DNA of 64,000 nt from Candidatus Moraniibacteriota bacterium (GCA_016699875.1 CP064989.1:848525-912524); one strand, 5' to 3'. Counted from the first letter of the stretch, positions 2,065 through 50,342 are shown. A program made the numbers and translations. Notes: generated by a model not told the origin, from the letters alone.

Positions 2065-4347
2065 ATGACAGAATCATCATCTTTATCTCCCGCTTCGAGC
2101 GATTTTACTCCCGGGAGCTCGAGGCGTCCGCGGAATTTTCCGCGAAGGAGATCGTTTGGCGCAAATGATCAAAATAAACAGGGGATTCGTTCGGATCGAT
2201 CCGGCGAAGCGTCAGGCTCTCGAAATCATCATCGGGGAAGTTTTTCCCGCCACAATGTCAGCGGAGGTCGAACAAGTGAGTCCGGAAGGAAACCACTTGA
2301 CTTAGGATCTATCTCATCATTTTTGGCAGAGCCACTTCGCAATATCTCTTTCGAGCGGGATCGGAAATTTGTTGCCGCATCGGATATGGCAACATCGAAC
2401 CAGCTGGGAGCGCGCTTGCAAAGACCGGAGAGATCCCGAGAGAGCCAGCCGATGCCTCATTCAGGGAATCGTCGCACGGATCGCCCGAGAAAATCAATGC
2501 ATGCCAATAGATCGAGATCGGTCAACCGCTCGGCGGAAGCGTCGGATGATACCGTATCAATGTCGAAACAAACCGCACGTAAGTTTGCGGCGTCGCGACG
2601 GGAGCCAAAGCCGTTTCTCTTTGATCGGAACGAGGGCGGGACAGTGCCTCCTATCGGTAAGGGACTGCTTCGTGTTATTCCTGTTGGCGGTCAGGAGGAA
2701 GTCGGTCGAAACATGACGATATTCGAATATGAAAACGATATCGTGATTATCGACATGGGTGTGCAGTGGCCGGAGGCGGACATGCCCGGCATCGACTACA
2801 TCGTGCCGAATATCAGTTATCTCAGGGGGAAGGAAAAAAATATCCGCGGCGTAATTTTTACGCACGGGCACCTCGATCATATCGGCGCGGCGCCTATTCT
2901 TCTCAAAGAATTGAACTACCCGCCGATTATCGGTCGCGATTTGACCATTGCTCTTGTCAAACGAAAAGTGGAGGATCATGAACAGGGTTCCACTTCTCGT
3001 CTCAAGATCGTGCCAGTTCGCTCGCTGGCCGATGTGATACAGCTGGGCGTCTTTCGGGCGAAGTTCTTCGAGGTAGAACATTCTATCATGGATGCGGTGG
3101 GCGTTGTTCTCGAGACGCCGGAGGGATCGATCATTCACATGGGTGACTGGACTATTGGTCGGGACCCGATCAATCCCAAGCCGATTACGTATACGCATCT
3201 TGCCGATCTCCCCAAGCCTACAATACTGATGCTTGAAAGTCTGGGCGCGCTCAAGTCCGGAGATTCGCCGTCGGAGCGGGAAGTGCACCGGAATTTGCAG
3301 CATCTTTTGGAGAGTGCGCCGGGACGCATTATTCTCGCGACGTTTGCTTCACAAGTGCAGCGTATCGCGTATATCATCGAATATGCCGAGCGCATCGGGA
3401 AGAAAGTGGCGCTCGAGGGTTACAGCATGAAGATGAACATGGAAATCGCCAAGGAGCTCGGGTATCTCAAGGCGAAGAAGGAGACTATCATTACCGTGAA
3501 TGATATTCATAAGTATCCGGACAATCAGGTGTTGGTGATTTGCACCGGAGCACAGGGCGAACTTAATGCAGCACTTTCGAAAATTGTCACGGACAACCAC
3601 CGATTTATCAAGCTGCAGAAGAAGGACACGATTGTATTTTCGTCATCGGTGATTCCGGGAAATGAGCGGAGTATACAGCGGCTCAAGGACAATCTCTACC
3701 GAAAGTGCGACAACGTGCTTCATAGCGAGACGCTCGATGCGCAGGGTATTCATCTTGATATTCATATTGGCGGGCATTCGACGGCAAAAGGTATCGAAGA
3801 GATGCTCCGGCAGGTGCGCCCGACATTTTTCTTGCCGGTCTATGCCAATCACTACTTCCTCAAGGAGGCGGCAAAGATTGCGAGTCGAATCGGATTTCCG
3901 GAGAATCGGGTCTTCGTACTTGACAACGGAGGCATTCTCGAAGTGGCGAAAGGCGAAGCAAAAGTGTTTCCAAAGAAGGCGGATTCAAGCTATGTATTCA
4001 TTGATGGGCTCGGCGTCGGCGATATCGGACATGTGGTGTTGCGGGATCGGCAGATGCTCGCTCAGGACGGCATGATCGTTATCACAGTGGTCATCGATTC
4101 GAAGACAAAGAAAATAATAGGTTCGATACAGATTACGTCGCGCGGATTTATTCATGTAAAAGAAAATTTTGATTTGGTGAATGAGACAAAACGAAAGGTG
4201 ACAAAAATTGTGAAAGATTCTACGTCGAAAGACACGTCACTTGATTGGAATCTTGTGAAGAACAATATTCGTGATACCGTTGGACAGTTTCTCTTCATAA
4301 AGACCGAGCGCCGACCGATGGTCTTACCGGTTATTGTCGAGGCATAA
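2065..4347 (+). CDS. rnj: ribonuclease J (metallo-beta-lactamase / beta-CASP) with a long N-terminal R/S-rich low-complexity extension
   Basis: RNase J hallmarks are present: LRVIPVGGQEEVGRNMTIFEYENDIVIIDMG, the HxHxDH motif FTHGHLDHIGA, and a beta-CASP region. The table ORF begins at 1936 but its first 43 aa are Cys/Phe-rich and start only 30 nt after the tRNA. I prefer the internal ATG at 2065 (Met44). The true start may be further downstream, since the canonical RNase J core begins near aa ~240. Confidence 0.8.
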   Translation: MTESSSLSPASSDFTPGSSRRPRNFPRRRSFGANDQNKQGIRSDRSGEASGSRNHHRGSFSRHNVSGGRTSESGRKPLDLGSISSFLAEPLRNISFERDRKFVAASDMATSNQLGARLQRPERSRESQPMPHSGNRRTDRPRKSMHANRSRSVNRSAEASDDTVSMSKQTARKFAASRREPKPFLFDRNEGGTVPPIGKGLLRVIPVGGQEEVGRNMTIFEYENDIVIIDMGVQWPEADMPGIDYIVPNISYLRGKEKNIRGVIFTHGHLDHIGAAPILLKELNYPPIIGRDLTIALVKRKVEDHEQGSTSRLKIVPVRSLADVIQLGVFRAKFFEVEHSIMDAVGVVLETPEGSIIHMGDWTIGRDPINPKPITYTHLADLPKPTILMLESLGALKSGDSPSEREVHRNLQHLLESAPGRIILATFASQVQRIAYIIEYAERIGKKVALEGYSMKMNMEIAKELGYLKAKKETIITVNDIHKYPDNQVLVICTGAQGELNAALSKIVTDNHRFIKLQKKDTIVFSSSVIPGNERSIQRLKDNLYRKCDNVLHSETLDAQGIHLDIHIGGHSTAKGIEEMLRQVRPTFFLPVYANHYFLKEAAKIASRIGFPENRVFVLDNGGILEVAKGEAKVFPKKADSSYVFIDGLGVGDIGHVVLRDRQMLAQDGMIVITVVIDSKTKKIIGSIQITSRGFIHVKENFDLVNETKRKVTKIVKDSTSKDTSLDWNLVKNNIRDTVGQFLFIKTERRPMVLPVIVEA

Positions 4348-4410: not shown

Positions 4411-4591
4411 GTCTCAAGCAATGTTCCGAATGGGCGGTGATGTCTGTCCATATGGAATGGCGGTCTTTATGCTTCAGTAGTAGCTATGAGATTTCTCGGT
4501 TACGATCGGGATGACAGAAACAAGGGATACGTTAGGCAACTACGGAGGCTTACGTACGAATTTTCTGAAATGATATACTGGAGGCATCTCT

Positions 4592-11989: not shown

Positions 11990-13051
11990 GTGATTTCTCG
12001 TAGATTTCTTGGTGCTATGCAGACCAAACGGATTGTGACAATTGGCGGGGGGACGGGGAGTTTTACGTTGCTGCAGGGATTGAAGCGGCACCCGTTTCGG
12101 CTTTCGGCAATTGTTTCCATGGCGGACGACGGCGGATCGACCGGGGTGCTTCGTGATGAGCTTGGGGTATTGCCGCCGGGCGATGTGCGGCAGTGTCTCG
12201 TGGCGCTTTCGCAGTCGTCGGACAAGATGCGCGAACTCATGAACTATCGTTTCGAAGACGGGGGACTCAAGGGGCATAGTTTCGGCAACTTGTTCTTGTC
12301 GGCACTCGAGAAGATGGAGGGGAATTTTTCAGAAGGCGTCCAGCGGGCAATGGAAATACTGAATGTGTGCGGTGAAGTGATTCCCGTCACCGATGACGAT
12401 GCACATCTCGAGATGAAACTTTCCGATGGAACGATATTGCGAGGAGAAAATGAGATTAATCATGCGGAGACATTGCAGGAGTCCGGCATTGAAAAGTTCT
12501 CTTTTGCAAAGCCGGTTCGGGCGAGCACTCTTGCTTTGAAACGAATTGGCGAGGCGGATGCGATTGTGATCGGACCGGGGAATTTTTACTGCAGCCTCTT
12601 GCCCAATATGCTCATCAAGAGCTGCGCAAGAGCGATACGCGATGCGTCGGCGCGGGTGATATTTGTCGCCAACCTGACGAATAAGCGCGGGCATACGAGC
12701 GGCTGGAATATCGGGGACTTTGTGCGGGAACTGGAGAAGTATATCGGGCATGGCCGTGTGGATTTCGTTGTCTGGAATGCGCGGAAGCCCAGCGGAGAAC
12801 TCATTCGGAAATATGAAGAGCAGGAAGGAGAAGGCATGCTGGTTGACTTTGATCGGGAAGGAGATGATTCTCGCACGTACCGCGTGCTCCGCGCCGATAT
12901 CGTGTCGGATCGCGCGCCGGTTGCGCAGGGAAGCGACGCAATCGCGACGACACGCTCGTTTATTCGCCACGATCCGGATCGTCTGGCGCAGGCAATTGCT
13001 TTCTTGGTCCATTTTGATTCAAAGAAGCGCGTTATTCACGATATCGTATGA
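11990..13051 (+). CDS. YvcK/CofD-like family protein (UPF0052; gluconeogenesis factor / 2-phospho-L-lactate transferase fold)
   Basis: The N-terminal VTIGGGTGSFTLLQGLK and ..MADDGGSTG.. motifs are typical of the YvcK/CofD family. The real start may be the internal Met (MQTKRIV). Confidence 0.7.
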   Translation: MISRRFLGAMQTKRIVTIGGGTGSFTLLQGLKRHPFRLSAIVSMADDGGSTGVLRDELGVLPPGDVRQCLVALSQSSDKMRELMNYRFEDGGLKGHSFGNLFLSALEKMEGNFSEGVQRAMEILNVCGEVIPVTDDDAHLEMKLSDGTILRGENEINHAETLQESGIEKFSFAKPVRASTLALKRIGEADAIVIGPGNFYCSLLPNMLIKSCARAIRDASARVIFVANLTNKRGHTSGWNIGDFVRELEKYIGHGRVDFVVWNARKPSGELIRKYEEQEGEGMLVDFDREGDDSRTYRVLRADIVSDRAPVAQGSDAIATTRSFIRHDPDRLAQAIAFLVHFDSKKRVIHDIV

Positions 13052-14400
13052 ATATTGAAATGTTTGAAAATCAATATCGAAAACAGTTGCCCGACTCTCC
13101 GGGGGTGTATTTTTTCGTGGACGAACAGGGGCGGATACTGTATATCGGCAAGGCGACGTCGCTTCGGGATCGGGTGAAAAGTTATTTCATGCAAGACATG
13201 CTCCTGACACGCGGACCGAAAATTGTGCGGATGCTTGAACTTGCGACGGATATCAAATGGCAAGAAGCCGACTCGGCGCTCGAAGCACTGCTTCTTGAAG
13301 CAAATCTTATTCACAAGCATCGGCCGCCGTACAATACAGACGCGAAAGATGACAAGAGCTGGAATCATGTTGTGATCACGAAGGAGAAATTTCCGCGAGT
13401 GCTTATTGAACGCGGTAGAAGATTGGAAGATCGAATATCGAATGCGGAAGAGGGAAGTAAGAATAAAGAATTTGGAATGAAGATTCGGGCGATGTTCGGA
13501 CCGTTCCCGAGCGGCGGGTCGCTCAAGGAGGCGGTGAAAATTGTGCGGAAAATTTTTCCGTTTCGGGATACTTGCACGCCGTTTGATAATGCTGCAAGCA
13601 AAGAAGATGCAATCAAATCTGCTCGTCATGCTTCTCGACGAAGGAGAGATGTGAGGGGGTGTTTTAACTCGCAAATAGGATTGTGCCCCGGCGTCTGCAC
13701 GGGTGATATATCGGCGCGGGAATATGGCAAGACGATACGAAATATAATTTTGTTCTTCGAGGGGAAGAAATCGACTCTCGTGCGTATGCTGGAACGCGAA
13801 ATGAAATCCGAGGCGAGAGCGCTTCGATTTGAGCGTGCAAGCGAAATTAAGAAAACGCTCTTTGCACTTTCGCATATTCAAGATGTGGCGCTTTTGAAGA
13901 AAAGCATATTCGATATTTCTTCGTCTGAGCGTTCCGGCGAATCGGAAGGAAAACAGAGAATAGAATCGTACGATGTGGCACACTTGGGCGGAACGGATAC
14001 GGTTGGCGTGATGACAGTGGTGGAGAATGGAAAGTCCAACAATCAAGCATATCGGAAATTTATTCTTCGAGGTGAGGCGCGCGGAAATGATTTGGCGGCA
14101 CTTGAAGAAGTATTGAGGCGCCGCTTCAAACACAGCGAGTGGGGATTGCCGACACTCATTGTCGTTGATGGGTCAAACCTTCAGAGACATGTAGCCGAAG
14201 CGGTATTGCGTGATTTTTCGATTGATATCCCGATTGTTTCTGTTCTGAAAGACGAGCATCATCGGCCAAAGGGGGTGCTCGGACCAAGAAAGGAGCGAAT
14301 GGCTCATCAAGAATCCATACTCCTTGCCAATAGCGAGGCGCACCGATTTGCAATTTCTTTTCATCGGAAGCGCAGAGGACGGGCTTTCTTAAGACAGTGA
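13048..14400 (+). CDS. uvrC: excinuclease ABC subunit C (GIY-YIG + UVR + RNase H-like endonuclease domains; C-terminal HhH domain absent)
   Basis: The GIY-YIG N-terminus is PGVYFFVDEQGRILYIGKATSLRDR. A UVR-like segment is RALRFERASEIKKTL. The RNase H-like region ends in the conserved EAHRFAIsfHRKRR. The protein stops right after this motif. In E. coli UvrC the (HhH)2 domain would follow here. Confidence 0.85.
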   Translation: MNIEMFENQYRKQLPDSPGVYFFVDEQGRILYIGKATSLRDRVKSYFMQDMLLTRGPKIVRMLELATDIKWQEADSALEALLLEANLIHKHRPPYNTDAKDDKSWNHVVITKEKFPRVLIERGRRLEDRISNAEEGSKNKEFGMKIRAMFGPFPSGGSLKEAVKIVRKIFPFRDTCTPFDNAASKEDAIKSARHASRRRRDVRGCFNSQIGLCPGVCTGDISAREYGKTIRNIILFFEGKKSTLVRMLEREMKSEARALRFERASEIKKTLFALSHIQDVALLKKSIFDISSSERSGESEGKQRIESYDVAHLGGTDTVGVMTVVENGKSNNQAYRKFILRGEARGNDLAALEEVLRRRFKHSEWGLPTLIVVDGSNLQRHVAEAVLRDFSIDIPIVSVLKDEHHRPKGVLGPRKERMAHQESILLANSEAHRFAISFHRKRRGRAFLRQ

Positions 14401-14911: not shown

Positions 14912-16570
14912 ATGGATATCAGTGCGGAGGACATCAAGAGGATTCTTCTCGAGGGGAGTTATGTGGCGCAGGACGATATTCGGAAGACAGAAATAAAAGC
15001 GGAGGCTCGGGGAATTTCTCTGACGAAGCTTCTCTTAGAGGAGGGATTGATGAGCAAGGATCTTTTGGGACAGGCGATTGCCGAATCGCTCGGTGTGTCG
15101 TATTCCGATTTGAATTCCGCATCTGTCTCACCGGAGCAGGTGAGGCGAATTCCCGAAGAGATTGCAAAGAAATATCGCGCGGTTGTTTTTTCCGAAAAAC
15201 AAGACACTGTTACCATTGCAACAGATTCTCCTCGAGAAGAGGTGATGATTTCAGAGATTGCCCCGATTTTTACTGGCAAGAAAATTGTTACAACTTATTC
15301 ACTTCCGGAGGACATCGAGTCACTTTTTATTCATTACAAGAAATCGCTCGAGACGCGCTTCTCAAAGATTCTTGAAGATAATAGCCAGGTTGCTTCGGGA
15401 TTTCTGGAGGAGATATTCGAAGATGCGGTTGAGTTTCGGGCATCGGATATTCATTTTGAGCCGAATGAGAGTAGTGTGGTTATTCGGTTTCGTATCGATG
15501 GCGTCTTGCAAAATGCCGGAACGCTTCCGAAAGAATACTACGATACGCTATTGAATCGAATCAAGGTGAAGAGCGGTTTGCGTATCGACGAGCACTTCTC
15601 GGCACAGGACGGATCGCTACGGTATGGAAAAGGCGATGGAGCGGTTGATATGCGGGTCTCGATTGTCCCGACTGTCGAGGGAGAAAAAGCAGTGTTGAGA
15701 GTGCTCTCTTCCTATATTGAGGGGCTCTCGTTGGCAGATATCGGTCTTTCTTCCGAGAATCAGGAAGTGTTGCAAACGTCTGCCAAGAAGCCGTTCGGCA
15801 TGATCTTGGTCGTGGGACCGACGGGAAGCGGGAAGACAACGACGCTGTATTCATTGCTGAAACTTCTGAATAGCCCCGATGCGAACATTACCACTATCGA
15901 AGATCCGGTCGAATACAAAGTGAGAGGAATAAATCAGATTCAAGTGAATGCGCGAACGAACTTGACATTTGCTCAGGGCTTGCGTTCGATTGTCCGTCAA
16001 GATCCCGATACGATTCTTGTGGGGGAGATACGTGATCGGGAAACAGCGGAAATCGCAGTGAATGCGGCACTCACCGGACATTTGCTTCTCTCAACCTTTC
16101 ACGCGAATGATGCAGCGACAGCACTCCCTCGGCTGGTTGATATGGGCATTGAATCGTTTCTCTTAGCCTCGACGCTTGATATCATCGTAGCGCAACGTTT
16201 GGTACGAAAGATATGTGCGGCATGCCGATCGGGAGTTTCGGCGTCTGTTCTCAGTGGAAAGCTCGGCGCGGTATCTCGGTCTGTTTTGACGACATATTTC
16301 CCTGAGGAGTCGGCCACATTTTATGAAGGAAAGGGATGCGCTCTGTGTAGCGGCACGGGATATAAAGGGCGAACGGCGCTTTTTGAATGCATACGTATCA
16401 CGCCTGCCATGCAGGATCTTATTGTGAAAAAACCGTCGACGCAAGAAATATGGAAGTTGGCAAGAGAGGAAGGTTCACTTTCCTTGTTTGAAGACGGCGT
16501 CCTTAAGGTGAAGAATGGCATTACTACTGCAGAGGAGTTGTTCCGTGTCGCTGAGCCGCCAAATGTATGA
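14912..16570 (+). CDS. pilB: type IV pilus assembly ATPase PilB (GspE family)
   Basis: Walker A is GPTGSGKTTTLYSLL. A GspE N-terminal domain is present. The tetracysteine zinc motif is CAACRS..CALCSGTGYKGR. Asp and His box regions are present. Confidence 0.85.
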   Translation: MDISAEDIKRILLEGSYVAQDDIRKTEIKAEARGISLTKLLLEEGLMSKDLLGQAIAESLGVSYSDLNSASVSPEQVRRIPEEIAKKYRAVVFSEKQDTVTIATDSPREEVMISEIAPIFTGKKIVTTYSLPEDIESLFIHYKKSLETRFSKILEDNSQVASGFLEEIFEDAVEFRASDIHFEPNESSVVIRFRIDGVLQNAGTLPKEYYDTLLNRIKVKSGLRIDEHFSAQDGSLRYGKGDGAVDMRVSIVPTVEGEKAVLRVLSSYIEGLSLADIGLSSENQEVLQTSAKKPFGMILVVGPTGSGKTTTLYSLLKLLNSPDANITTIEDPVEYKVRGINQIQVNARTNLTFAQGLRSIVRQDPDTILVGEIRDRETAEIAVNAALTGHLLLSTFHANDAATALPRLVDMGIESFLLASTLDIIVAQRLVRKICAACRSGVSASVLSGKLGAVSRSVLTTYFPEESATFYEGKGCALCSGTGYKGRTALFECIRITPAMQDLIVKKPSTQEIWKLAREEGSLSLFEDGVLKVKNGITTAEELFRVAEPPNV

Positions 16571-18021
16571 GTAATGCAACATCGGCATCTCATCGCCTAT
16601 TCGCCACGGTTGGATTGGGGAAGGAGTTGGATTATTTGGTTGAGAATTTGAGCATGCTTGTGTCGGCGGGTATGCCTGTTTCGAGCGCGCTTGATGCGAT
16701 CGCCGAAGAAACGCAGTCTCATCGAATGAAACGCGCTATTCTCTCGATGCGCACTGATATCGAGAGCGGATTGACGCTCTGGGCAGCTTTGGAAAGAAGC
16801 GGATTGTTCCGAGAACATGTAGTATCGCTTGTCCGCATCGGCGAAGAATCCGGAAGGCTGGTTGAGAATCTGAAAGTAGTATCGGTTGAAGAAGAAAAAG
16901 ATCGGCTTTTCCGTTCCAAACTTCGATCGGCAATGACGTATCCGATCTTTGTGCTCCTAGTGACAGCGGTTGTCGGTATCGGTATTGCATGGTTTATCTT
17001 GCCGAAACTCGCGTTGGTATTCTCACAGTTAAAGATTGCTCTTCCGTGGATCACCAAAGCACTGATTAGTGTGGGCGTGTTTCTGAATGCGTCCGGCTGG
17101 AAGGTGCTTCCAGCGGGGTCGATCGTGATTGCGGTACTTTTTTATTTCGCATTCTTCTTCCCGAAGACCAAGGTTATCGGACAGTACTTTCTGCTCTTCA
17201 TTCCCGGAGTAAAGCAGTTGATATCGGAGGTTGAAATGGCGCGGTTCGGATTTCTTTTGGGGACGCTTCTTTCCGCGGGAATACCGGTGGTAAAGTCTCT
17301 TGACTCTTTAGTGAGAGCGACTGATTCTGTCCCGTACAGAAAACTTTTTCTGTATCTGCGTAATTCTATTGAAGCGGGAAACTCTTTTCAAAAAAGCTTT
17401 GCTTTGTTGCGTCGCGGAGACCGTCGAATATCTCGGCCTATTCAACAACTCATCGTTGCGGCTGAACGATCCGGAAATCTTCCGGAAACATTCTTGAAGA
17501 TAGGATCGACGTACGAAGGCAAAGCGGATGCGACGACGAAAAATCTCACGGTTATTTTGGAGCCGATCCTATTGGTTCTCGTATGGCTCGGAGTGGTCGG
17601 AGTGGCGCTTGCGGTTATTCTTCCGATCTACAGTCTGGTAGGCGGACTCAACCAGAATGAAGATTCGACAGCGTCTATGCAGTCAACTACCGAACAGCCT
17701 CTCTCGGTCAATTCTTCTCCCGAATCCCCGGAAAGCGGATCGTTGGCCGAACCGCAAGCAATTCCAGAGACCGGTGCTGCATTGTCGGGAGAAACGCCCA
17801 ATGTTCTGCCAGTGATTCGCGTGCAAGAAACGAATGTTGGATACTTGAATGTTCGCGATATCCCTGCGGCGTCGGGTGCGCTGGTGGGGAAGGTGGTTCC
17901 GGGCGATACGCTCTCGTATACGGAAGAACGGGATGGCTGGTTCTCGGTTGTCTTGCCGAATGGAGAGTCCGGCTGGGTGTCCGGAGATTATGTGGAAAGA
18001 GTAACTGAACAATCGCCATGA
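16567..18021 (+). CDS. pilC: type IV pilus inner-membrane platform protein PilC (GspF family) fused to a C-terminal bacterial SH3 (SH3b) domain
   Basis: Two GspF-type repeats with three TM segments are present (..SGNLPETFLKIGSTYEG..). After an S/P/E-rich linker comes an SH3b-like module: VGYLNVRDIPAASGALVGKVVPGDTLSYTEERDGWFSVVLPNGESGWVSGDYVERV. Its start overlaps the pilB stop by 4 nt. Confidence 0.8.
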   Translation: MSNATSASHRLFATVGLGKELDYLVENLSMLVSAGMPVSSALDAIAEETQSHRMKRAILSMRTDIESGLTLWAALERSGLFREHVVSLVRIGEESGRLVENLKVVSVEEEKDRLFRSKLRSAMTYPIFVLLVTAVVGIGIAWFILPKLALVFSQLKIALPWITKALISVGVFLNASGWKVLPAGSIVIAVLFYFAFFFPKTKVIGQYFLLFIPGVKQLISEVEMARFGFLLGTLLSAGIPVVKSLDSLVRATDSVPYRKLFLYLRNSIEAGNSFQKSFALLRRGDRRISRPIQQLIVAAERSGNLPETFLKIGSTYEGKADATTKNLTVILEPILLVLVWLGVVGVALAVILPIYSLVGGLNQNEDSTASMQSTTEQPLSVNSSPESPESGSLAEPQAIPETGAALSGETPNVLPVIRVQETNVGYLNVRDIPAASGALVGKVVPGDTLSYTEERDGWFSVVLPNGESGWVSGDYVERVTEQSP

Positions 18022-18458
18022 GATCGTCGGCCCATGCTTTCACTCTGCTTGAAGTCATGCTCTCACTTGCGGCTATGGCGGCGATTGCGGGTATTTCCGT
18101 GCCGATCTATCAATCGTTTCAAGTAAGAAATGATTTGGATATTGCGGCAACGACTATAGCGGAGAGTTATCGTCGTGCTACGGTGCTCGCGCAGGCATCG
18201 GACGGCGATGCTAGTTGGGGAGTGCGCATTCAATCGGGAGGCGTCACCCTTTTTAAGGGGGCGAGCTATGCGGCTCGGGACGCTTCGTTCGATGAGTTTT
18301 TTCCCGTTCCGACAGGCATTGTTCCGTCAGGGATGTCCGAGGCAATTTTCGCGAAGTTTACCGGCATGCCAATGGCGACCGGCACCGTAACACTCACCTC
18401 TTCCGCCAATGAAACACGAACCATCACAATCAATACCAAGGGCATGGTTGATTACTGA
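18018..18458 (+). CDS. prepilin-type minor pilin (GspH/FimT-like)
   Basis: The class III signal is MRSSAHA|FTLLEVMLSLAAMAAIAG, with conserved Glu5 and Ala at position -1. It overlaps the pilC stop. Confidence 0.6.
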   Translation: MRSSAHAFTLLEVMLSLAAMAAIAGISVPIYQSFQVRNDLDIAATTIAESYRRATVLAQASDGDASWGVRIQSGGVTLFKGASYAARDASFDEFFPVPTGIVPSGMSEAIFAKFTGMPMATGTVTLTSSANETRTITINTKGMVDY

Positions 18459-19038
18459 GAAATTCCGCGGATTTTCGCTTGTGGAAGTGCTTCTTTCGGG
18501 CGCAGTTTTCTCGCTCCTGGTGACAGCCTTGGTGGGGGTGTATCTCTATGGCGAAGAGTCGACCGCTCTCGCGGGGAATCGAGCGCGAGCAGTCTTTTTT
18601 GCGGAAGAAGGGCTTGAAGCGGTGCGGAATATTCGTGATGCGAACTTTACTAATCTTTCTAATGGCACATACGGACTTGCAGTATCCGGAGGACAATGGA
18701 ATTTCTCTGGCTCTTCCGATACAAACGGTATTTTCACGCGAGAAGTTGTCATTAGTTCGGCGGGTATGAACCGGAAGGATGTCGAAGTAACGGTTTCTTG
18801 GCAGCAAAATGCCAGTCGGATCGGTCAGGTATCTCTTACCTCGCGTTTTACCCATTGGCAGGAGGGTTCTGCTGCCTCGTCTTCGTGTACGGAATTTGTT
18901 ATTCCGCTTGGCTATAGCCAGGGAACGTGTCGGCAGAATACGGTTCAGTGCGGTCACAATGGCGAGACACATGAGGCAGGCGGAGATGTTCTTTGCATAG
19001 GAGGACCGTCGGCGGATACCTGCTGCGCGCTTCCGTGA
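18409..19038 (+). CDS. prepilin-type minor pilin (PilV/GspI-like) with Cys-rich C-terminus
   Basis: The ..EKFRG|FSLVEVLLSGAVFSLLV prepilin motif is present. The table ATG at 18409 gives a 21-aa leader. A TTG 12 codons downstream would give a typical short basic leader. The C-terminus has 7 Cys. Confidence 0.55.
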   Translation: MKHEPSQSIPRAWLITEKFRGFSLVEVLLSGAVFSLLVTALVGVYLYGEESTALAGNRARAVFFAEEGLEAVRNIRDANFTNLSNGTYGLAVSGGQWNFSGSSDTNGIFTREVVISSAGMNRKDVEVTVSWQQNASRIGQVSLTSRFTHWQEGSAASSSCTEFVIPLGYSQGTCRQNTVQCGHNGETHEAGGDVLCIGGPSADTCCALP

Positions 19039-19043
19039 ATCCT

Positions 19044-19559
19044 ATGAAACAAAATGAATATAGACAATCCGGGTTTACACTGATCGAGCTGCTTCTCTAT
19101 GTTGGGATCGCTTCGTTATTGCTTTTTGCTGCATCGATCATCTTGTCAATATTGCTCGAATCGCGCATCAAGAATCAGACAATAGCTGAAGTTGAGGGGC
19201 AGGGCGCGGCAGTGTTACACATTCTTGGGCAATCGGTCCGAAATGCGAGTGGCATAAATTCGCCATCTCCCGGTTCAAGTGCTTCAATGCTCTCGCTTGC
19301 TGTTGATAATTCGGGAAATAATCCGACGGTGTTTAATATTGAGTTAGGCGCGCTTCGTGTGAAAGAGGGTTCATCCGGAGCGATCAATCTCACAAATAGT
19401 CGCGTTGTCGTGTCAAACTTATCGGTAGCTAATCTTTCTCGTTCGGGTACGCTGGGAACGGTTCGGATTGAGTTTACTGTGGCGGCAAAAAACACTTCCG
19501 GACGCAATGCCTATTCTTTTTCGAAAACATTTGCAACTTCGGCTACGCTGCGACAATAG
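19044..19559 (+). CDS. prepilin-type minor pilin (PilW/GspJ-like)
   Basis: Internal Met MKQNEYRQSG|FTLIELLLYVGIASLLLFAA carries the canonical G-FTLIE motif. The table ORF begins at TTG 18993. Confidence 0.55.
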   Translation: MKQNEYRQSGFTLIELLLYVGIASLLLFAASIILSILLESRIKNQTIAEVEGQGAAVLHILGQSVRNASGINSPSPGSSASMLSLAVDNSGNNPTVFNIELGALRVKEGSSGAINLTNSRVVVSNLSVANLSRSGTLGTVRIEFTVAAKNTSGRNAYSFSKTFATSATLRQ

Positions 19560-19605
19560 TCAACGCTGGTCGGTTTGGGACTCAAACAGTATTTTCGTTG
19601 ATGCT

Positions 19606-20007
19606 ATGTTGAATCGCAAGAAACAATCCGGGTATATCACGCTTCTCAGTATCTTGGTTGTCGGAGCGGTCGGGGTCTCGATATCCGTATCGCTCCTCTT
19701 GCTTGGGCTGGGGAATTCACGGACCGGACTCTCTCTGCAGCAAATGTACCAAGCGAAAGCGCTCGCGGATGCTTGTGCGGAAGAGGCTCTTATTGAGGTG
19801 CAGAGCTCTGTTTCGTTTGCCGGGAGCGGCTCTTTGGCAATCGGACGGGGAACCTGTTCGTACTCGGTAACGAATCAGGGCGGGCAAAATAGGACGGTGA
19901 CAGCTGTGGGCACAATCGGCACAATTGTTCGGAAAACAGAAGTTATTTTGAGTAAGATTACTCCAAATATCGCTGTGATATCTTGGCAAGAGGTAAGGGA
20001 TTTGTAA
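19606..20007 (+). CDS. PilX-like pilus-associated protein / atypical minor pilin
   Basis: MLNRKKQSGYITLLSILVVGAVGVSISVSLLLLGL is a hydrophobic PilX-like N-terminal segment lacking Glu5. It is Met47 of table ORF 19468..20007. Confidence 0.45.
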   Translation: MLNRKKQSGYITLLSILVVGAVGVSISVSLLLLGLGNSRTGLSLQQMYQAKALADACAEEALIEVQSSVSFAGSGSLAIGRGTCSYSVTNQGGQNRTVTAVGTIGTIVRKTEVILSKITPNIAVISWQEVRDL

Positions 20008-20053
20008 CAAAGTATGGTATACTCGCAACATCAAGTGTTATTTTTCTGCCGCT

Positions 20054-20518
20054 ATGCGTGACATTCGAAGAGGGTGTATTCAAAATGAGAGGCAGCGAGG
20101 ATTTACCTTGCTTGAAATACTTTTGGTTGTAGCGGCAATCGGCATTCTTGCCGGCATCGTTATTCTCGCAATAAATCCGACCAAGCAGCTCGGGGACACT
20201 CGGAATGCCCAGCGCCGTTCCGATGTGAATACGATTCTGAATGCGGTTTATCAATATGCCATCGACAACAATGGCACTCTGCCAGCATCTATCACTACCA
20301 CCGCAACGCCTGTTTGCAAGACGGGCGGAACCTGTACAAGTCTTATCGATTTGAGCGCGCTTACGACGAATGAGAAATACCTCGTTTCTCTGCCATACGA
20401 TCCGATCGGTTCGACGACGAATAGCACCGGGTACAATATTAGCAAGTCTGCGAATGGGCGAGTGACAGTTTCAGCTCCAAGTGCCGAACAGAGCGTGACG
20501 ATCAGTGTCACGAGATGA
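20054..20518 (+). CDS. type IV pilin (major pilin candidate, paralog 1)
   Basis: ..QRG|FTLLEILLVVAAIGILAGIVILAINPTKQLGDTRNAQRRSDVNTILNAVYQY.. is a canonical type IVa pilin N-terminal helix. The C-terminal domain is Cys-containing and Thr/Ser-rich. Confidence 0.75.
   Translation: MRDIRRGCIQNERQRGFTLLEILLVVAAIGILAGIVILAINPTKQLGDTRNAQRRSDVNTILNAVYQYAIDNNGTLPASITTTATPVCKTGGTCTSLIDLSALTTNEKYLVSLPYDPIGSTTNSTGYNISKSANGRVTVSAPSAEQSVTISVTR
20105..20284 (+). repeat. direct repeat copy 1 (conserved pilin N-terminal coding block, ~180 nt)
   Basis: Near-identical nucleotide stretch (..attctcgcaataaatccgaccaagcagctcgg..actcggaatgcccagcg..) shared with 20697..20876, roughly 85-90% identity by eye. Confidence 0.7.
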
Positions 20519-47371: not shown

Positions 47372-47815
47372 ATGAGACCTTTCTTCTGTTTTGATAGCAA
47401 CAAGGAAATATTTATTATGGGTTTCAGAGAGGAGGATGCTTGTAAAAAGGCTGTTATGCTTGTCAGAGAAGGTGCGCAAGAGGTATTTTGCCGACTTTAT
47501 CCTACGCGTGACAAGCGTCTTAAGACTACTTGGGAAAATTCACTTTGGGACAACCCTGACGACGATAGTCCATTCAGATTATTTAGATTCAAACATAATT
47601 TTTCTGAAGAAGGAGTTTCTCAAGCGTGGGCACTGTTTTGGCTTTCCCGAGAGAACTATTTTCTTTTAATCAGTTTTCAAAGGAGTTTGGGGAGAGGTTT
47701 TGTTCCCGGATATCGTTTCAAGTTTCGCCTTACAAAATGTGGGCGGATAGTCCTAAGGCGGAGGAAGGGGAAGATGGACTGTCAGAAAGAAATAAGAAAG
47801 CTTTTAGCCTCTTAG
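47372..47815 (+). CDS. hypothetical protein
   Basis: ORF only. Its 3' end overlaps the convergent GT4 gene by a few nt. Confidence 0.3.
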   Translation: MRPFFCFDSNKEIFIMGFREEDACKKAVMLVREGAQEVFCRLYPTRDKRLKTTWENSLWDNPDDDSPFRLFRFKHNFSEEGVSQAWALFWLSRENYFLLISFQRSLGRGFVPGYRFKFRLTKCGRIVLRRRKGKMDCQKEIRKLLAS

Positions 47816-49083
47816 TCACTACTAAGCTCACAGTACAACTTTTCATACTCCTTCGCCGTCTCTTTGAGATCAAATGATCTCTCCACAAACGCCCTCGCAT
47901 TCGTGCCAAGGGCGTTTCTTTTTGCCTCATTGGCGCGAAGCGACTCGATGGCGCTCCAGAGAGCGTCGCCATTGTCACGGGGAATGGTAGCAGAAATTTG
48001 CGGGTTTGAGAACTCTTCGAATATCGGAAGGTCGGAGAGAATCACCGGTCTTCCGCAGGCATAGGCTTCGAGGATAACGAGTGGCACATCGAACTTTCCG
48101 TGCATATTGCTGACCGGAAAGGTAACAATGTCGGCAATATTGTAGAGTGCGGCGACATCGGAGACCGTATCGCTGAAGCGCACCTGGTCAAGTATTCCCG
48201 CTTTCCGGAATTTCTCTGTGATTTCCTCTTTCTTCTTTTGGTCGGCATCGTTTTTGATACGGAGCGCGAAGAGGAATTTCATGTCTTCGCCACCCATGCG
48301 ATCCGCCAGCTGACGGATGGGGTCCAGATTTTGCTGACTCAAGGGAATGTCTTCGCAAACTCTACTTGCTAGAGCCTCCCGTTGGCTGGTGGTGTCTGGA
48401 TTCCCGCCTTCGCGGGAATGACGACTTGGACTACGTGATACGTGTTTGACGAGCATGTCGGCGATCATATCAGTCGCACCGAGGCGAGCATATTCGCCGG
48501 CATAGGAAATGACAAAGTCAGCCGGAGAGATGTTGAGTTTTTTGAGGGTTTCGGGATCTTTTGGTCGCGGAGAGAATCGTTCGAGGTCGATTCCCGGGTA
48601 TATGCGCTCAACATTCTCAAGGCCAACTGATTGCAGTTTCTGCTTCGAGTACTCGGTATAGGTGATGAGGCGGTCAGCAAAAAACATACGCTTCCAATCT
48701 GACTCATTCCATCGCTCTTCACGGAGTGTTGCGATAGTCTGAATCGTCTTGGGATGCGTGCCGATGAGGTGTTTTGACAGGAAAGAGTTGAAAGGTGTCG
48801 GCGTGAAGAGGAAATGTACCATATCAAACGTTCGCCCTTTGGTTCCAAGAAACGCAGCGAGGCGCGCCTTGGCTTCGAAGTTGAATCGACCGCTTCGGAA
48901 TATCGGGTGTTGGACGCAGTTTGTGCCCAATTCCTCGAGTGTTTCGTTGGCGGTGAGCAGGTGAAATTCGAGCTGTGGATCCCGGATGCTCTTTGCCAAG
49001 AAATACGCGAAGTTTTTCGACGCTTCATCCCATGGCGGCACGAGCGGCCGAGTAGCAAGGAGGATTTTGATGGGAGTTGACAT
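47812..49083 (-). CDS. glycosyltransferase family 4 carrying an in-frame palindromic insertion
   Basis: The C-terminal GT4 motif is ..VPLVILEAYACGRPVILSDLP... An internal low-complexity segment (..SRSPSRHSREGGNPDTTSQREALASR..) is encoded by a hairpin-forming repeat-like sequence. Confidence 0.7.
   Translation of the reverse strand: MSTPIKILLATRPLVPPWDEASKNFAYFLAKSIRDPQLEFHLLTANETLEELGTNCVQHPIFRSGRFNFEAKARLAAFLGTKGRTFDMVHFLFTPTPFNSFLSKHLIGTHPKTIQTIATLREERWNESDWKRMFFADRLITYTEYSKQKLQSVGLENVERIYPGIDLERFSPRPKDPETLKKLNISPADFVISYAGEYARLGATDMIADMLVKHVSRSPSRHSREGGNPDTTSQREALASRVCEDIPLSQQNLDPIRQLADRMGGEDMKFLFALRIKNDADQKKKEEITEKFRKAGILDQVRFSDTVSDVAALYNIADIVTFPVSNMHGKFDVPLVILEAYACGRPVILSDLPIFEEFSNPQISATIPRDNGDALWSAIESLRANEAKRNALGTNARAFVERSFDLKETAKEYEKLYCELSSD
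48396..48422. repeat. short palindromic REP-like element inside the GT4 coding region
   Basis: ggattcccgc-cttc-gcgggaatg(acg) is a perfect 9-bp stem. On the plus strand it reads DSRLRGND-like, resembling widespread small interspersed palindromes. Coordinates are approximate. Confidence 0.4.
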
Positions 49084-49494: not shown

Positions 49495-50342
49495 GAACCT
49501 GTTTACAATCTTTTCAACAACAATCGAGCAAAACTTAAAACCATCATCTGTAAGCTCGAATCCAGTGTCCGTTCGCAATTCTTCCAGAGCCTTCGGCATT
49601 TCTCCAGCCAGGAGAAGCTTCTCTCGACCACCCAGCGCTGAGGAAGAACGGCAAACGTATGCAATTCGTTTCGTTTAGCTACTCCCACTTCCGCACCGAT
49701 ACATGCTTTGATCGCTTTGGCGAAGTTTTCTCCGGTATAACTACCATCAGTCAAGAGTTTCTCCACCCGTGAAAGGTGTTTTTTGTTTGCCTTGACGGCT
49801 TGGATAGCTCCATTTCGATCAGTGACGTTAGCAGTGGTTACCGTGAACGCATGCGGCAATCCGTTGGTGTCAACGAGAATATGTCGCTTGATACCGGAAA
49901 CTTTTTTCCTGCATCATAACCTTTTTCTCGAGCCGTATCTGTATTCTTGACACTTTGAGCATCAACGATGCAGAAACTGGTTTTGCATTGTTTGCCATTT
50001 TTCATACGTTCTTGTTCGACCAATTTTTTTTAAGACTTGCTCAAGCATACTCTCTGTCTGTTTGTTTTTTCGTTCCTTCCAGACAAGGAAGTGTCGATAG
50101 ACACTCTGCCATTTTGGATAATCCTTGGGAAGTGCCCTCCATTGGCAACCCGTGACCAGAATGTAGAGCAGAGCGTTGAATACGTCATAGGAATCAAGTG
50201 TCTTTGGTTTGGTTCTCTTCCTGGTTGATTCGAGAAATGGTCTGATGTGTTCGAATTGTTCTCGGGTTATGTCGCTTGGATACATGGTTCTTTTGGTTTG
50301 AGGATTATGTCCTCAGTGTACCAGAAGATTGTAAACAGGTTC
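49495..50342 (-). mobile_element. IS5-family insertion sequence (ISL2/IS1031-like, ~848 bp) with 18-bp terminal inverted repeats and TTA target-site duplication
   Basis: The left end gaacctgtttacaatctt (49495..49512) is the exact reverse complement of the right end aagattgtaaacaggttc (50325..50342). Flanking TTA is found on both sides. An internal DDE transposase (GCQWRALPKDYPKWQSVYRHF, IVDAQSVKNTDTAREKGYDAGKK, WVVERSFSWLEKCRRLWKNCE) is encoded in three frames. Confidence 0.75.
49503..50285 (-). pseudogene. IS5-family DDE transposase, interrupted by two frameshifts located at poly-A runs
   Basis: It spans three table ORFs (49962..50285, 49838..50023 and 49503..49859, all minus). Junction 1 is at ttaaaaaaaattgg and junction 2 at ggaaaaaagttt. 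Each needs a +1 shift to restore the conserved protein (..LEQVLKK|LVEQER.. and ..GYDAGKK|VSGIKRHILVDTNGL..). Confidence 0.75.

Follow-up and report, generated by a model that had tools for sequence, protein, structure and literature searches.

Introduction

The Rickettsia palindromic elements (RPEs), known since 2000, are palindromic repeats of about 100-150 nt that insert in frame into genes and leave the open reading frame (ORF) intact, and the neisserial intergenic mosaic elements (NIMEs) are repeat units flanked by dRS3 inverted repeats, which lie clustered between genes. The scale of the former can be judged from R. felis, which has 728 RPEs, 85 of them within ORFs (PMC1166351). Here we analyse a palindromic insertion in a 64,000-nt stretch from an ultra-small bacterium of the Candidatus Moraniibacteriota (GCA_016699875.1, CP064989.1:848525-912524; hereafter the window, meaning this whole stretch), which lies in frame within a gene for a GT4 glycosyltransferase and carries at one end an exact copy of the Neisseria Transformation Sequence (NTS).

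The NTS is a 28-nt sequence, CGTCATTCCCGCGMAVGCGGGAATCYRG, which contains the Neisseria dRS3 palindrome and is bound by SsnA, a single-domain GIY-YIG nuclease (cd10448) that recognises it as single-stranded DNA (ssDNA) only, and on one strand only, and that cleaves a few nucleotides upstream of it (Chenal et al. 2025, PMC11893778). In many phyla, ssnA genes have on their flanks NTS-like sequences, termed Ssn-related motifs (SRMs), and an analogy has been drawn between the NTS/SsnA pair and the repetitive extragenic palindromic (REP) sequences with their REP-associated tyrosine transposases (RAYTs) (PMC11893778). Neither RPEs nor in-frame copies are mentioned in that work, and no link between RPEs and Ssn was found in the literature searched. 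The locus described here touches both literatures, that on the in-frame palindromic elements of reduced genomes and that on the Ssn nuclease/NTS hairpin system.

A sequence-only reading of the window had drawn attention to a hairpin in the GT4 gene, proposing a REP-like palindrome inserted in frame, of a kind tolerated as surface loops in some reduced genomes, that might mark a recent insertion or act as a regulatory hairpin in the mRNA. Based on the identity of the hairpin, on the comparison with orthologues and on the distribution of the motif in other genomes, we consider it likely that, taken as a whole, this is a composite element of the NTS family, accommodated in frame in a permissive loop of the glycosyltransferase and acting at the level of the DNA.

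Results

Identity of the hairpin

The 26-mer GGATTCCCGCCTTCGCGGGAATGACG occurs once in the window and was absent from all 100 shuffled versions of it. The sequence-only reading took it for a perfect hairpin, which is correct for its central 20 nt (ATTCCCGC-CTTC-GCGGGAAT) but not for the remainder, which lies outside the stem-loop. By itself an 8-bp hairpin is within chance, the window having 14 distinct perfect hairpins of at least 8 bp against about 6 expected (our own estimate, 64000 x 6 loop sizes x 4^-8); what goes beyond chance is the match to the NTS at 28 of 28 positions, together with the match to the SRM pattern. On the sense strand of the gene, CGTCATTCCCGCGAAGGCGGGAATCCAG agrees with the published consensus without a single mismatch (0 such matches expected from shuffles), and the agreement includes the 5' CGTCAT and the 3' C after the palindrome, which give the motif its orientation. 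The degenerate SRM search pattern HGTCWYN(0-2)YYVSBRHN(0-5)WNVSBRGN(0-2)RNCYNB has its one match in the window at this same site (shuffle mean 0.18). To judge by these matches, the hairpin belongs to the NTS/SRM repeat family (dRS3 core), which is tied to the Ssn GIY-YIG nucleases; it is thus an exact NTS copy, and one end of a composite with two hairpins, instead of the REP-like element first suggested. The NTS is free of stop codons in five of its six reading frames.

Extent and parts of the insertion

The insertion can be measured by the length of the loop that holds it. From the invariant GATDM motif to the next beta-strand there are 18 residues in 66 of 120 orthologues (for example, LTDWLIKYFTNHPDSNMK) and 63 in the window protein; without the 45 codons of the repeat block, the window loop reads IADMLVKHVSRSPSEDMK, of equal length and pattern. 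The excess is exactly those 45 codons, the ORF is intact and the orthologues that carry the extra segment carry the palindrome too. The proposal of an in-frame palindromic element is therefore upheld, as is the low-complexity translation quoted for it (..SRHSREGGNPDTTSQREALAS.., on the coding strand; HSREGGNPDTTSQR is a further peptide of the insert), but not its extent, given as 48330-48440 and about 35 residues (the actual block is listed in Table 1).

The composite consists of the NTS at the left end, a spacer and an inverted right-hand variant hairpin. In comparison with the orthologous locus L001, the first 10 nt of the spacer are the same and the remainder is about half identical (by eye). 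The outer arms of the right-end hairpin resemble an inverted NTS variant of L001 (GTCACCCCCGC...GCGGGGGTCCAG), but its inner palindrome (48301-48318) is unlike the inner part of that variant; the inner module, CCGCCAGCTGRCGG, is found again in other Moraniibacteriota repeats, with three copies in L126 and also in L124. The inverted ends are clear in L001 and degenerate in the window (17 nt, 71%). No target-site duplication is visible at either boundary of the insert, and the DNA of the canonical loop holds no NTS-like sequence, for which reason mimicry of a target site in the native loop was rejected. When folded, the 146-nt stretch 48285-48430 reaches -25.6 kcal/mol as DNA (z -2.3 vs shuffles) and -53.5 kcal/mol as RNA (z -2.8), and the NTS hairpin is retained in both folds.

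Table 1. Composite insertion, host gene and other features of the window (positions counted from its first nucleotide).
Feature	Position	Strand	Basis or detail
Composite palindromic insertion, 135 nt = codons 221-265 (RHSREGGNP...ADRMGG)	48289..48423	-	boundaries +/-1 nt
NTS (Ssn-related motif) 28-mer CGTCATTCCCGCGAAGGCGGGAATCCAG, on the sense strand of the gene	48396..48423	-	consensus match
26-mer containing the hairpin	48398..48423	+	single copy
dRS3-type palindrome ATTCCC-N8-GGGAAT	48400..48419	.	perfect 8-bp stem, 4-nt loop
Spacer, 68 nt	48328..48395	-	diverged from L001/L003 spacers in alignment
Inverted right-end hairpin; + strand GCCACCC-ATGCGATCCGCCAGCTGACGGAT-GGGGTCCAG	48289..48327	-	inverted repeats and L001 alignment
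Host gene, GT4 (GT-B fold) glycosyltransferase, 423 aa	47812..49083	-	intact ORF and Pfam
ORF of 147 aa between RtcB and host GT4	47372..47815	+	no Pfam match
IS4/IS5-family transposase in two frames	49503..50285	-	DUF4096 49962-50285, DDE_Tnp_1 49503-49859
ORF with GIY-YIG-like motif at its N-terminus	13048..14400		presumed UvrC
Type IV pilus-like operon	14912..20518	+	T2SSE ATPase, T2SSF platform protein; at least two N_methyl pseudopilins (18018-18458, 20054-20518)

The host protein and its fold

In the GT4 protein (100% identical to an NCBI protein of a Candidatus Moraniibacteriota metagenome-assembled genome, MAG), Pfam places Glyco_transf_4 at residues 29-169 and Glycos_transf_1 at residues 281-398. 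Because the second match does not begin until profile position 55, the domain may be interrupted ahead of the matched part. All of the 51 columns that are invariant across the 120 orthologues are retained in the insert-bearing protein. An AlphaFold model, built on 35 orthologues, has a mean predicted local distance difference test score (pLDDT) of 84.9 and a predicted template modelling score (pTM) of 0.81, and its best PDB matches in Foldseek are the GT4 enzymes HepE, PimB' and BshA. The pLDDT falls below 50 only at residues 219-265 (essentially the inserted residues 221-265), a segment placed between helix 204-215 and strand 268-274; the insertion site is the loop between the first helix and the second strand of the C-terminal Rossmann domain. 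The inserted peptide is probably translated and disordered, and tolerated as a loop in the way that had been supposed; its position on the surface, away from the catalytic cleft, would follow from the GT-B topology.

Inheritance and conservation of the element

The element is found at an identical site in three orthologues with only 65-73% protein identity. In L001 (protein P0012, 69% identity) it is complete and in the same position, its 123 nt being cleanly bounded by the NTS and by the inverted NTS variant GTCACCCCCGCGAAGGCGGGGGTCCAG; L003 (P0018) has it with an internal deletion, and L128 (P0025) has a solo NTS with one mismatch in the stem and a loop no longer than normal. The element is absent from L002 (P0009). 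From the alignment of these orthologues, the insertion is inherited rather than recent, the latter having been the first proposal.

Between the window gene and that of L001 (70.1% DNA identity), the longest identical run, of 38 nt, is the NTS plus 10 nt, and the second longest has 20 nt. Third-position identity, counted over codons for identical residues, is 0.55 throughout the gene, and yet the 12 consecutive codons across the NTS are identical, for which our own arithmetic gives 0.547^12, or about 7e-4. Additionally, the NTS persists in four lineages in which the spacer and the flanking codons of the native loop have diverged or been deleted. By these comparisons, the nucleotide sequence of the NTS is more strongly conserved than the encoded protein would require. 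As the hairpin is conserved as DNA even though it encodes a disordered loop, this points to constraint at the DNA level, to concerted evolution or to re-insertion.

One loop, several families of inserts

Among the closest orthologues (about 55), this same loop holds at least five families of low-complexity inserts: the NTS family (HSREGGNP... / ...LDPRLRGGD), 'QGEV', 'FPARN/HSPHS', 'HPEL...GMT' and 'CHCE'. The non-NTS inserts for which DNA is available (three families) all form hairpins, with stems of 6-11 bp (8-11 bp in L124, L125 and L127), and several of them open with GTCAT, as SRMs do. On a neighbour-joining tree (no bootstrap), the insert families do not form separate groups but alternate among near-identical alleles. 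The allele P0017 is a clear recombinant mosaic, with residues 270-360 97% identical to P0009 and residues 361-420 97% identical to P0019; over the latter segment it is only 48% identical to P0011, the next-closest allele of the P0009 group.

Some orthologues have extra inserts in other loops, such as the second-site insert AKAGIQ...LDSRLRGND of P0037, which is encoded by an NTS at L125 10418-10445. In L126, a 36-nt SRM-like extended hairpin, GTCATTGCGATCCGCCAGCTGGCGGAGAAGCAATCC, is present in three copies (2620-2657, 3039-3076 and 4502-4539), two of them within the orthologous GT4 gene (P0056, 516 aa, with inserts in four loops) and the third in the next gene. Pieces of the non-NTS inserts recur elsewhere in their own loci, RtcB included: repeat pieces of the GT4 loop lie inside the neighbouring RtcB gene at L125 ~12395 and L127 ~12451, where RtcB has 537 and 515 aa, respectively, against 498 aa in L124. 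Since the RtcB proteins with repeat pieces are the longer ones, in-frame insertion of repeats would affect several genes in these genomes.

Distribution of the NTS

The exact 24-nt core of the NTS, GTCATTCCCGCGAAGGCGGGAATC, was found in at least 120 loci of species-representative genomes from many phyla and in at least 120 viral or proviral contigs of IMG/VR (L129-L208 and beyond). The matches listed come from Bacteroidota, many classes of Proteobacteria, Planctomycetota, Chloroflexota, Nitrospirales, Gemmatimonadetes, Terriglobia, Myxococcota, Spirochaetota and Clostridia, and nine of the loci are from Patescibacteria. Among these listed matches, conservation across loci is confined to the 28-mer, and the commonest arrangement is an inverted NTS(+)/NTS(-) pair 39-115 nt apart. 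SsnA-like GIY-YIG ORFs are flanked by NTS copies in L031, L072, L078 and L111, and one adjoins an NTS in L082 (the GIY-YIG domain was confirmed with Pfam for L072 and L082 only); this reproduces the published association of the NTS with ssnA.

In other Patescibacteria, the NTS lies in frame in genes for a P-type ATPase (L034), for PrmC (L074) and for Wzy_C proteins (L080 and, in a C-terminal tail, L094). Genomes related to that of the window have three NTS/SRM copies in 4.3 kb (L001) and three in 21 kb (L125).

Two loci outside this group are of note. In L061, from a Rickettsia endosymbiont of Polydrusus tereticollis, a 1137-aa ORF for a class I tRNA synthetase contains in frame an NTS(+)/NTS(-) composite (1641-1770) that encloses two further hairpins, and the 8-kb stretch has six NTS copies, which suggests that some RPEs may be bounded by the NTS. 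A Dehalococcoidia MAG (L095, 7715-7956) has three tandem NTS copies with a 107-nt period and repeated flanks, an array and not inverted pairs.

Further copies and candidate partners in the window

The follow-up that the sequence-only reading called for, a search for further copies, has a divided outcome: the motif is abundant in other genomes and has no second copy in the window, where the 26-mer, the dRS3-type pattern, the NTS, the SRM pattern and the 12-mers of the element returned otherwise only chance 12-13-mers. A 23-mer specific to the composite (NTS plus spacer) had 0 matches in the JGI metagenomes; there is therefore no evidence of the composite as a separate mobile family.

The sole GIY-YIG-like motif noticed in the window is that of the presumed UvrC (Table 1). 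Small single-domain GIY-YIG genes occur in Moraniibacteriota and Paceibacterota contigs (L063 1924-2166 and L080 4238-4489). Duplicated pieces from the 5' part of a tRNA gene flank each of them, and they lack the C-terminal tail of the SsnA type; on both grounds they were rejected as Patescibacteria partners of the NTS, and they look like a different cassette, of the homing type, targeting tRNA genes. The type IV pilus-like operon of the window is possibly a DNA-uptake machinery, which would be relevant if the NTS acts on incoming ssDNA.

Genomic neighbourhood

The host gene is part of an envelope-polysaccharide cluster whose order is UDP-glucose dehydrogenase, GT2, GT4, membrane protein, host GT4, RtcB, thymidylate kinase and flippase, and the cluster around the host GT4 is common to loci L124-L128 (synteny). 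Some 400 bp upstream of the host GT4, separating it from the membrane-protein gene, lies the split IS4/IS5-family transposase, which is missing from the corresponding spot in the syntenic loci L124, L125, L127 and L128. On the other side, where the window has the 147-aa ORF on the opposite strand to the host GT4, related loci have shorter, unrelated small ORFs.

Discussion

The reading that we prefer joins a permissive place in the protein to an action on DNA. The survival of the insertion would be due to a length divisible by three, to an NTS that is open in most frames and to a permissive loop, the inserted peptide being a tolerated passenger. When the sense strand is single-stranded, as in incoming transforming DNA or during replication, the hairpin would serve as the binding site of an SsnA-like nuclease, with a cut immediately upstream of it, and such cleavage would shorten recombination tracts across the envelope locus. 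Action at the DNA level, as we propose, would account for a hairpin that has remained perfect in an insert that is otherwise decaying. A simple 'cut-out' mobilisation by Ssn was rejected, in that an inverted NTS pair gives one cut per strand and releases no single-stranded element.

Several observations weigh against this reading. No further NTS or SRM was found in the 64-kb window with up to 8 mismatches allowed, and no SsnA-like ORF was detected either in the window (profile hidden Markov model, HMM, built from four NTS-flanked SsnA-like ORFs, E<=1; the window was also searched by regular expression) or in about 100 kb of orthologous Moraniibacteriota loci, so that the Patescibacteria sequences examined (the window and the listed loci) yielded no SsnA, and the only small GIY-YIG genes in Patescibacteria loci are those of the non-SsnA type with tRNA-fragment flanks. 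Patescibacteria have 0 mentions in the description of the NTS/SsnA system, and in N. meningitidis the NTS is rarely intragenic (2%) (PMC11893778). The right-hand hairpin is unlike the NTS and the solo copy of L128 has its stem mismatch, so decay does happen; a short conversion tract or a re-insertion, and not selection, could have produced the 38-nt identity; and the low pLDDT of the inserted residues may be due in part to a sparse alignment in those columns.

Much of this would also be expected if the element were selfish DNA that had entered an ancestral genome on one or a few occasions and were now an inert relic, decaying in a cell with no protein that recognises it, the perfect NTS being then explained by chance, by short gene-conversion tracts from other copies or by later re-insertion. 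The single copy in the window and the lack of an SsnA-like gene in the sequence searched favour such a relic, as do the internal deletions in L003 and L128, the altered right end in the window, the replacement of one repeat family by another at this site among close relatives and the lack of metagenomic matches to the composite-specific 23-mer. Decay alone, however, sits poorly with the NTS being the longest stretch of identity between two genes that are close to saturation at synonymous positions, and with its being kept in four lineages despite the loss or divergence of the flanking loop codons and of the spacer; moreover, the additional 10 identical nucleotides lie beyond the NTS consensus, and conversion from other NTS copies is therefore no explanation for them. 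We regard the relic as possible, though somewhat doubtful. The multiplicity of inserts raises a different explanation, in which the hairpin is the target of a site-specific recombinase or nuclease and the loop is a landing pad, that is, a hot spot of recombination or integration. In its favour are the insert families, at least five, that share the loop and alternate on the gene tree, the three non-NTS families with available DNA all forming hairpins, together with mosaic alleles such as P0017 and the known targeting of dRS3 by a Neisseria phage recombinase (PMC11893778). Nevertheless, no recombinase lies nearby apart from the IS4/IS5-family transposase, which the syntenic loci lack, the canonical loop DNA offers no NTS-like target, the breakpoint of P0017 is not at the insert, and a permissive loop together with selection accounts for the pattern equally well, so that we find a hot spot of this kind improbable.

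The stable GC-rich 8-bp stem on the sense strand, and the RNA fold of the surrounding stretch, would suit a regulatory hairpin in the mRNA (a translational pause, an RNase site or an attenuator within the coding region), as the sequence-only reading had also entertained. There is, however, no T-tract, terminator-like site or promoter at the hairpin, on which ground a role as terminator, attenuator or promoter was rejected, and no Rfam family at the site (Rfam gave only a tRNA elsewhere in the window). Across phyla, the same 28-mer turns up in all orientations and contexts, and RNA is not bound by SsnA (PMC11893778). Taken together, these points make regulation at the mRNA level very unlikely. 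That the palindrome is incidental to a native variable linker could be argued from the varying loop lengths of the orthologues, but this is effectively refuted by the 28/28 match to a published repeat, by the same 24-mer in at least 120 unrelated genomes and at least 120 viral contigs, and by an excess length that is exactly the repeat block.

If the hairpin is kept by selection on DNA, protein loops of Patescibacteria would house DNA-level signals, with a bearing on the control of recombination in these organisms, and many odd low-complexity segments in predicted proteins (HSREGGNP, LDSRLRGND, IPAFAGMT and similar) would find an explanation. A broader generalisation, which at this stage we think unlikely, is that SRMs are a general source of 'protein-coding palindromes' in small-genome bacteria, RPEs and the loop inserts of Patescibacteria being one phenomenon in which intragenic hairpins are kept by DNA-level selection (as punctuation for ssDNA cleavage or recombination) and permissive loops serve as parking places. 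In practice, inserts of the kind described here lengthen loop regions, are a possible source of error when domains are annotated or structures predicted, and flag places prone to recombination within envelope gene clusters.

Comparison with known systems

With the NTS/dRS3/SRM and SsnA system (PMC11893778), the window element shares the 28-nt sequence, the hairpin, the tendency to inverted pairs and the wide phyletic spread. It differs in that the copy is intragenic and in the coding frame, in that its host belongs to the Patescibacteria, a group not mentioned there, and in that there is one copy per 64 kb rather than clusters, with no ssnA in the sequence searched. The REP sequences, which with the bacterial interspersed mosaic elements (BIMEs) and RAYTs form a similar system, are likewise short repeats that form hairpins and are recognised, in single-stranded form, by a small nuclease of their own; in contrast to the present element, REPs are extragenic, have another consensus and depend on a Y1 HUH (IS200/IS605-like) transposase rather than on a GIY-YIG nuclease. 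Among the few window ORFs scanned with Pfam (a scan that was not exhaustive), there was no Y1 transposase, and the only transposase was the IS4/IS5-family DDE enzyme. Miniature inverted-repeat transposable elements (MITEs, for example the Correia elements) are also short, non-autonomous elements with terminal inverted repeats, but the window composite has no visible target-site duplication and each of its terminal repeats is itself a hairpin; no cognate transposase is known.

In architecture the window element is like the NIMEs, in which inverted dRS3-type hairpins enclose a spacer of about 50-150 nt, but it is a single unit within coding sequence. As in the RPEs, a palindromic repeat (here 135 nt, or 45 codons) lies in frame in the intact ORF (423 aa) of a housekeeping-type gene, with its peptide in a loop that the model predicts to be compatible with the fold, and the NTS-bounded composite in the class I tRNA synthetase of a Rickettsia endosymbiont is in frame as well. 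The phylum is a different one (Moraniibacteriota), and the element is therefore no RPE in the strict sense, the likeness described here being one of architecture. Both kinds of element, the NTS and the in-frame palindromes, are already known; what is new is an exact NTS copy that behaves like an RPE, in a host group for which it had not been reported and at a notable hot spot of inserts.

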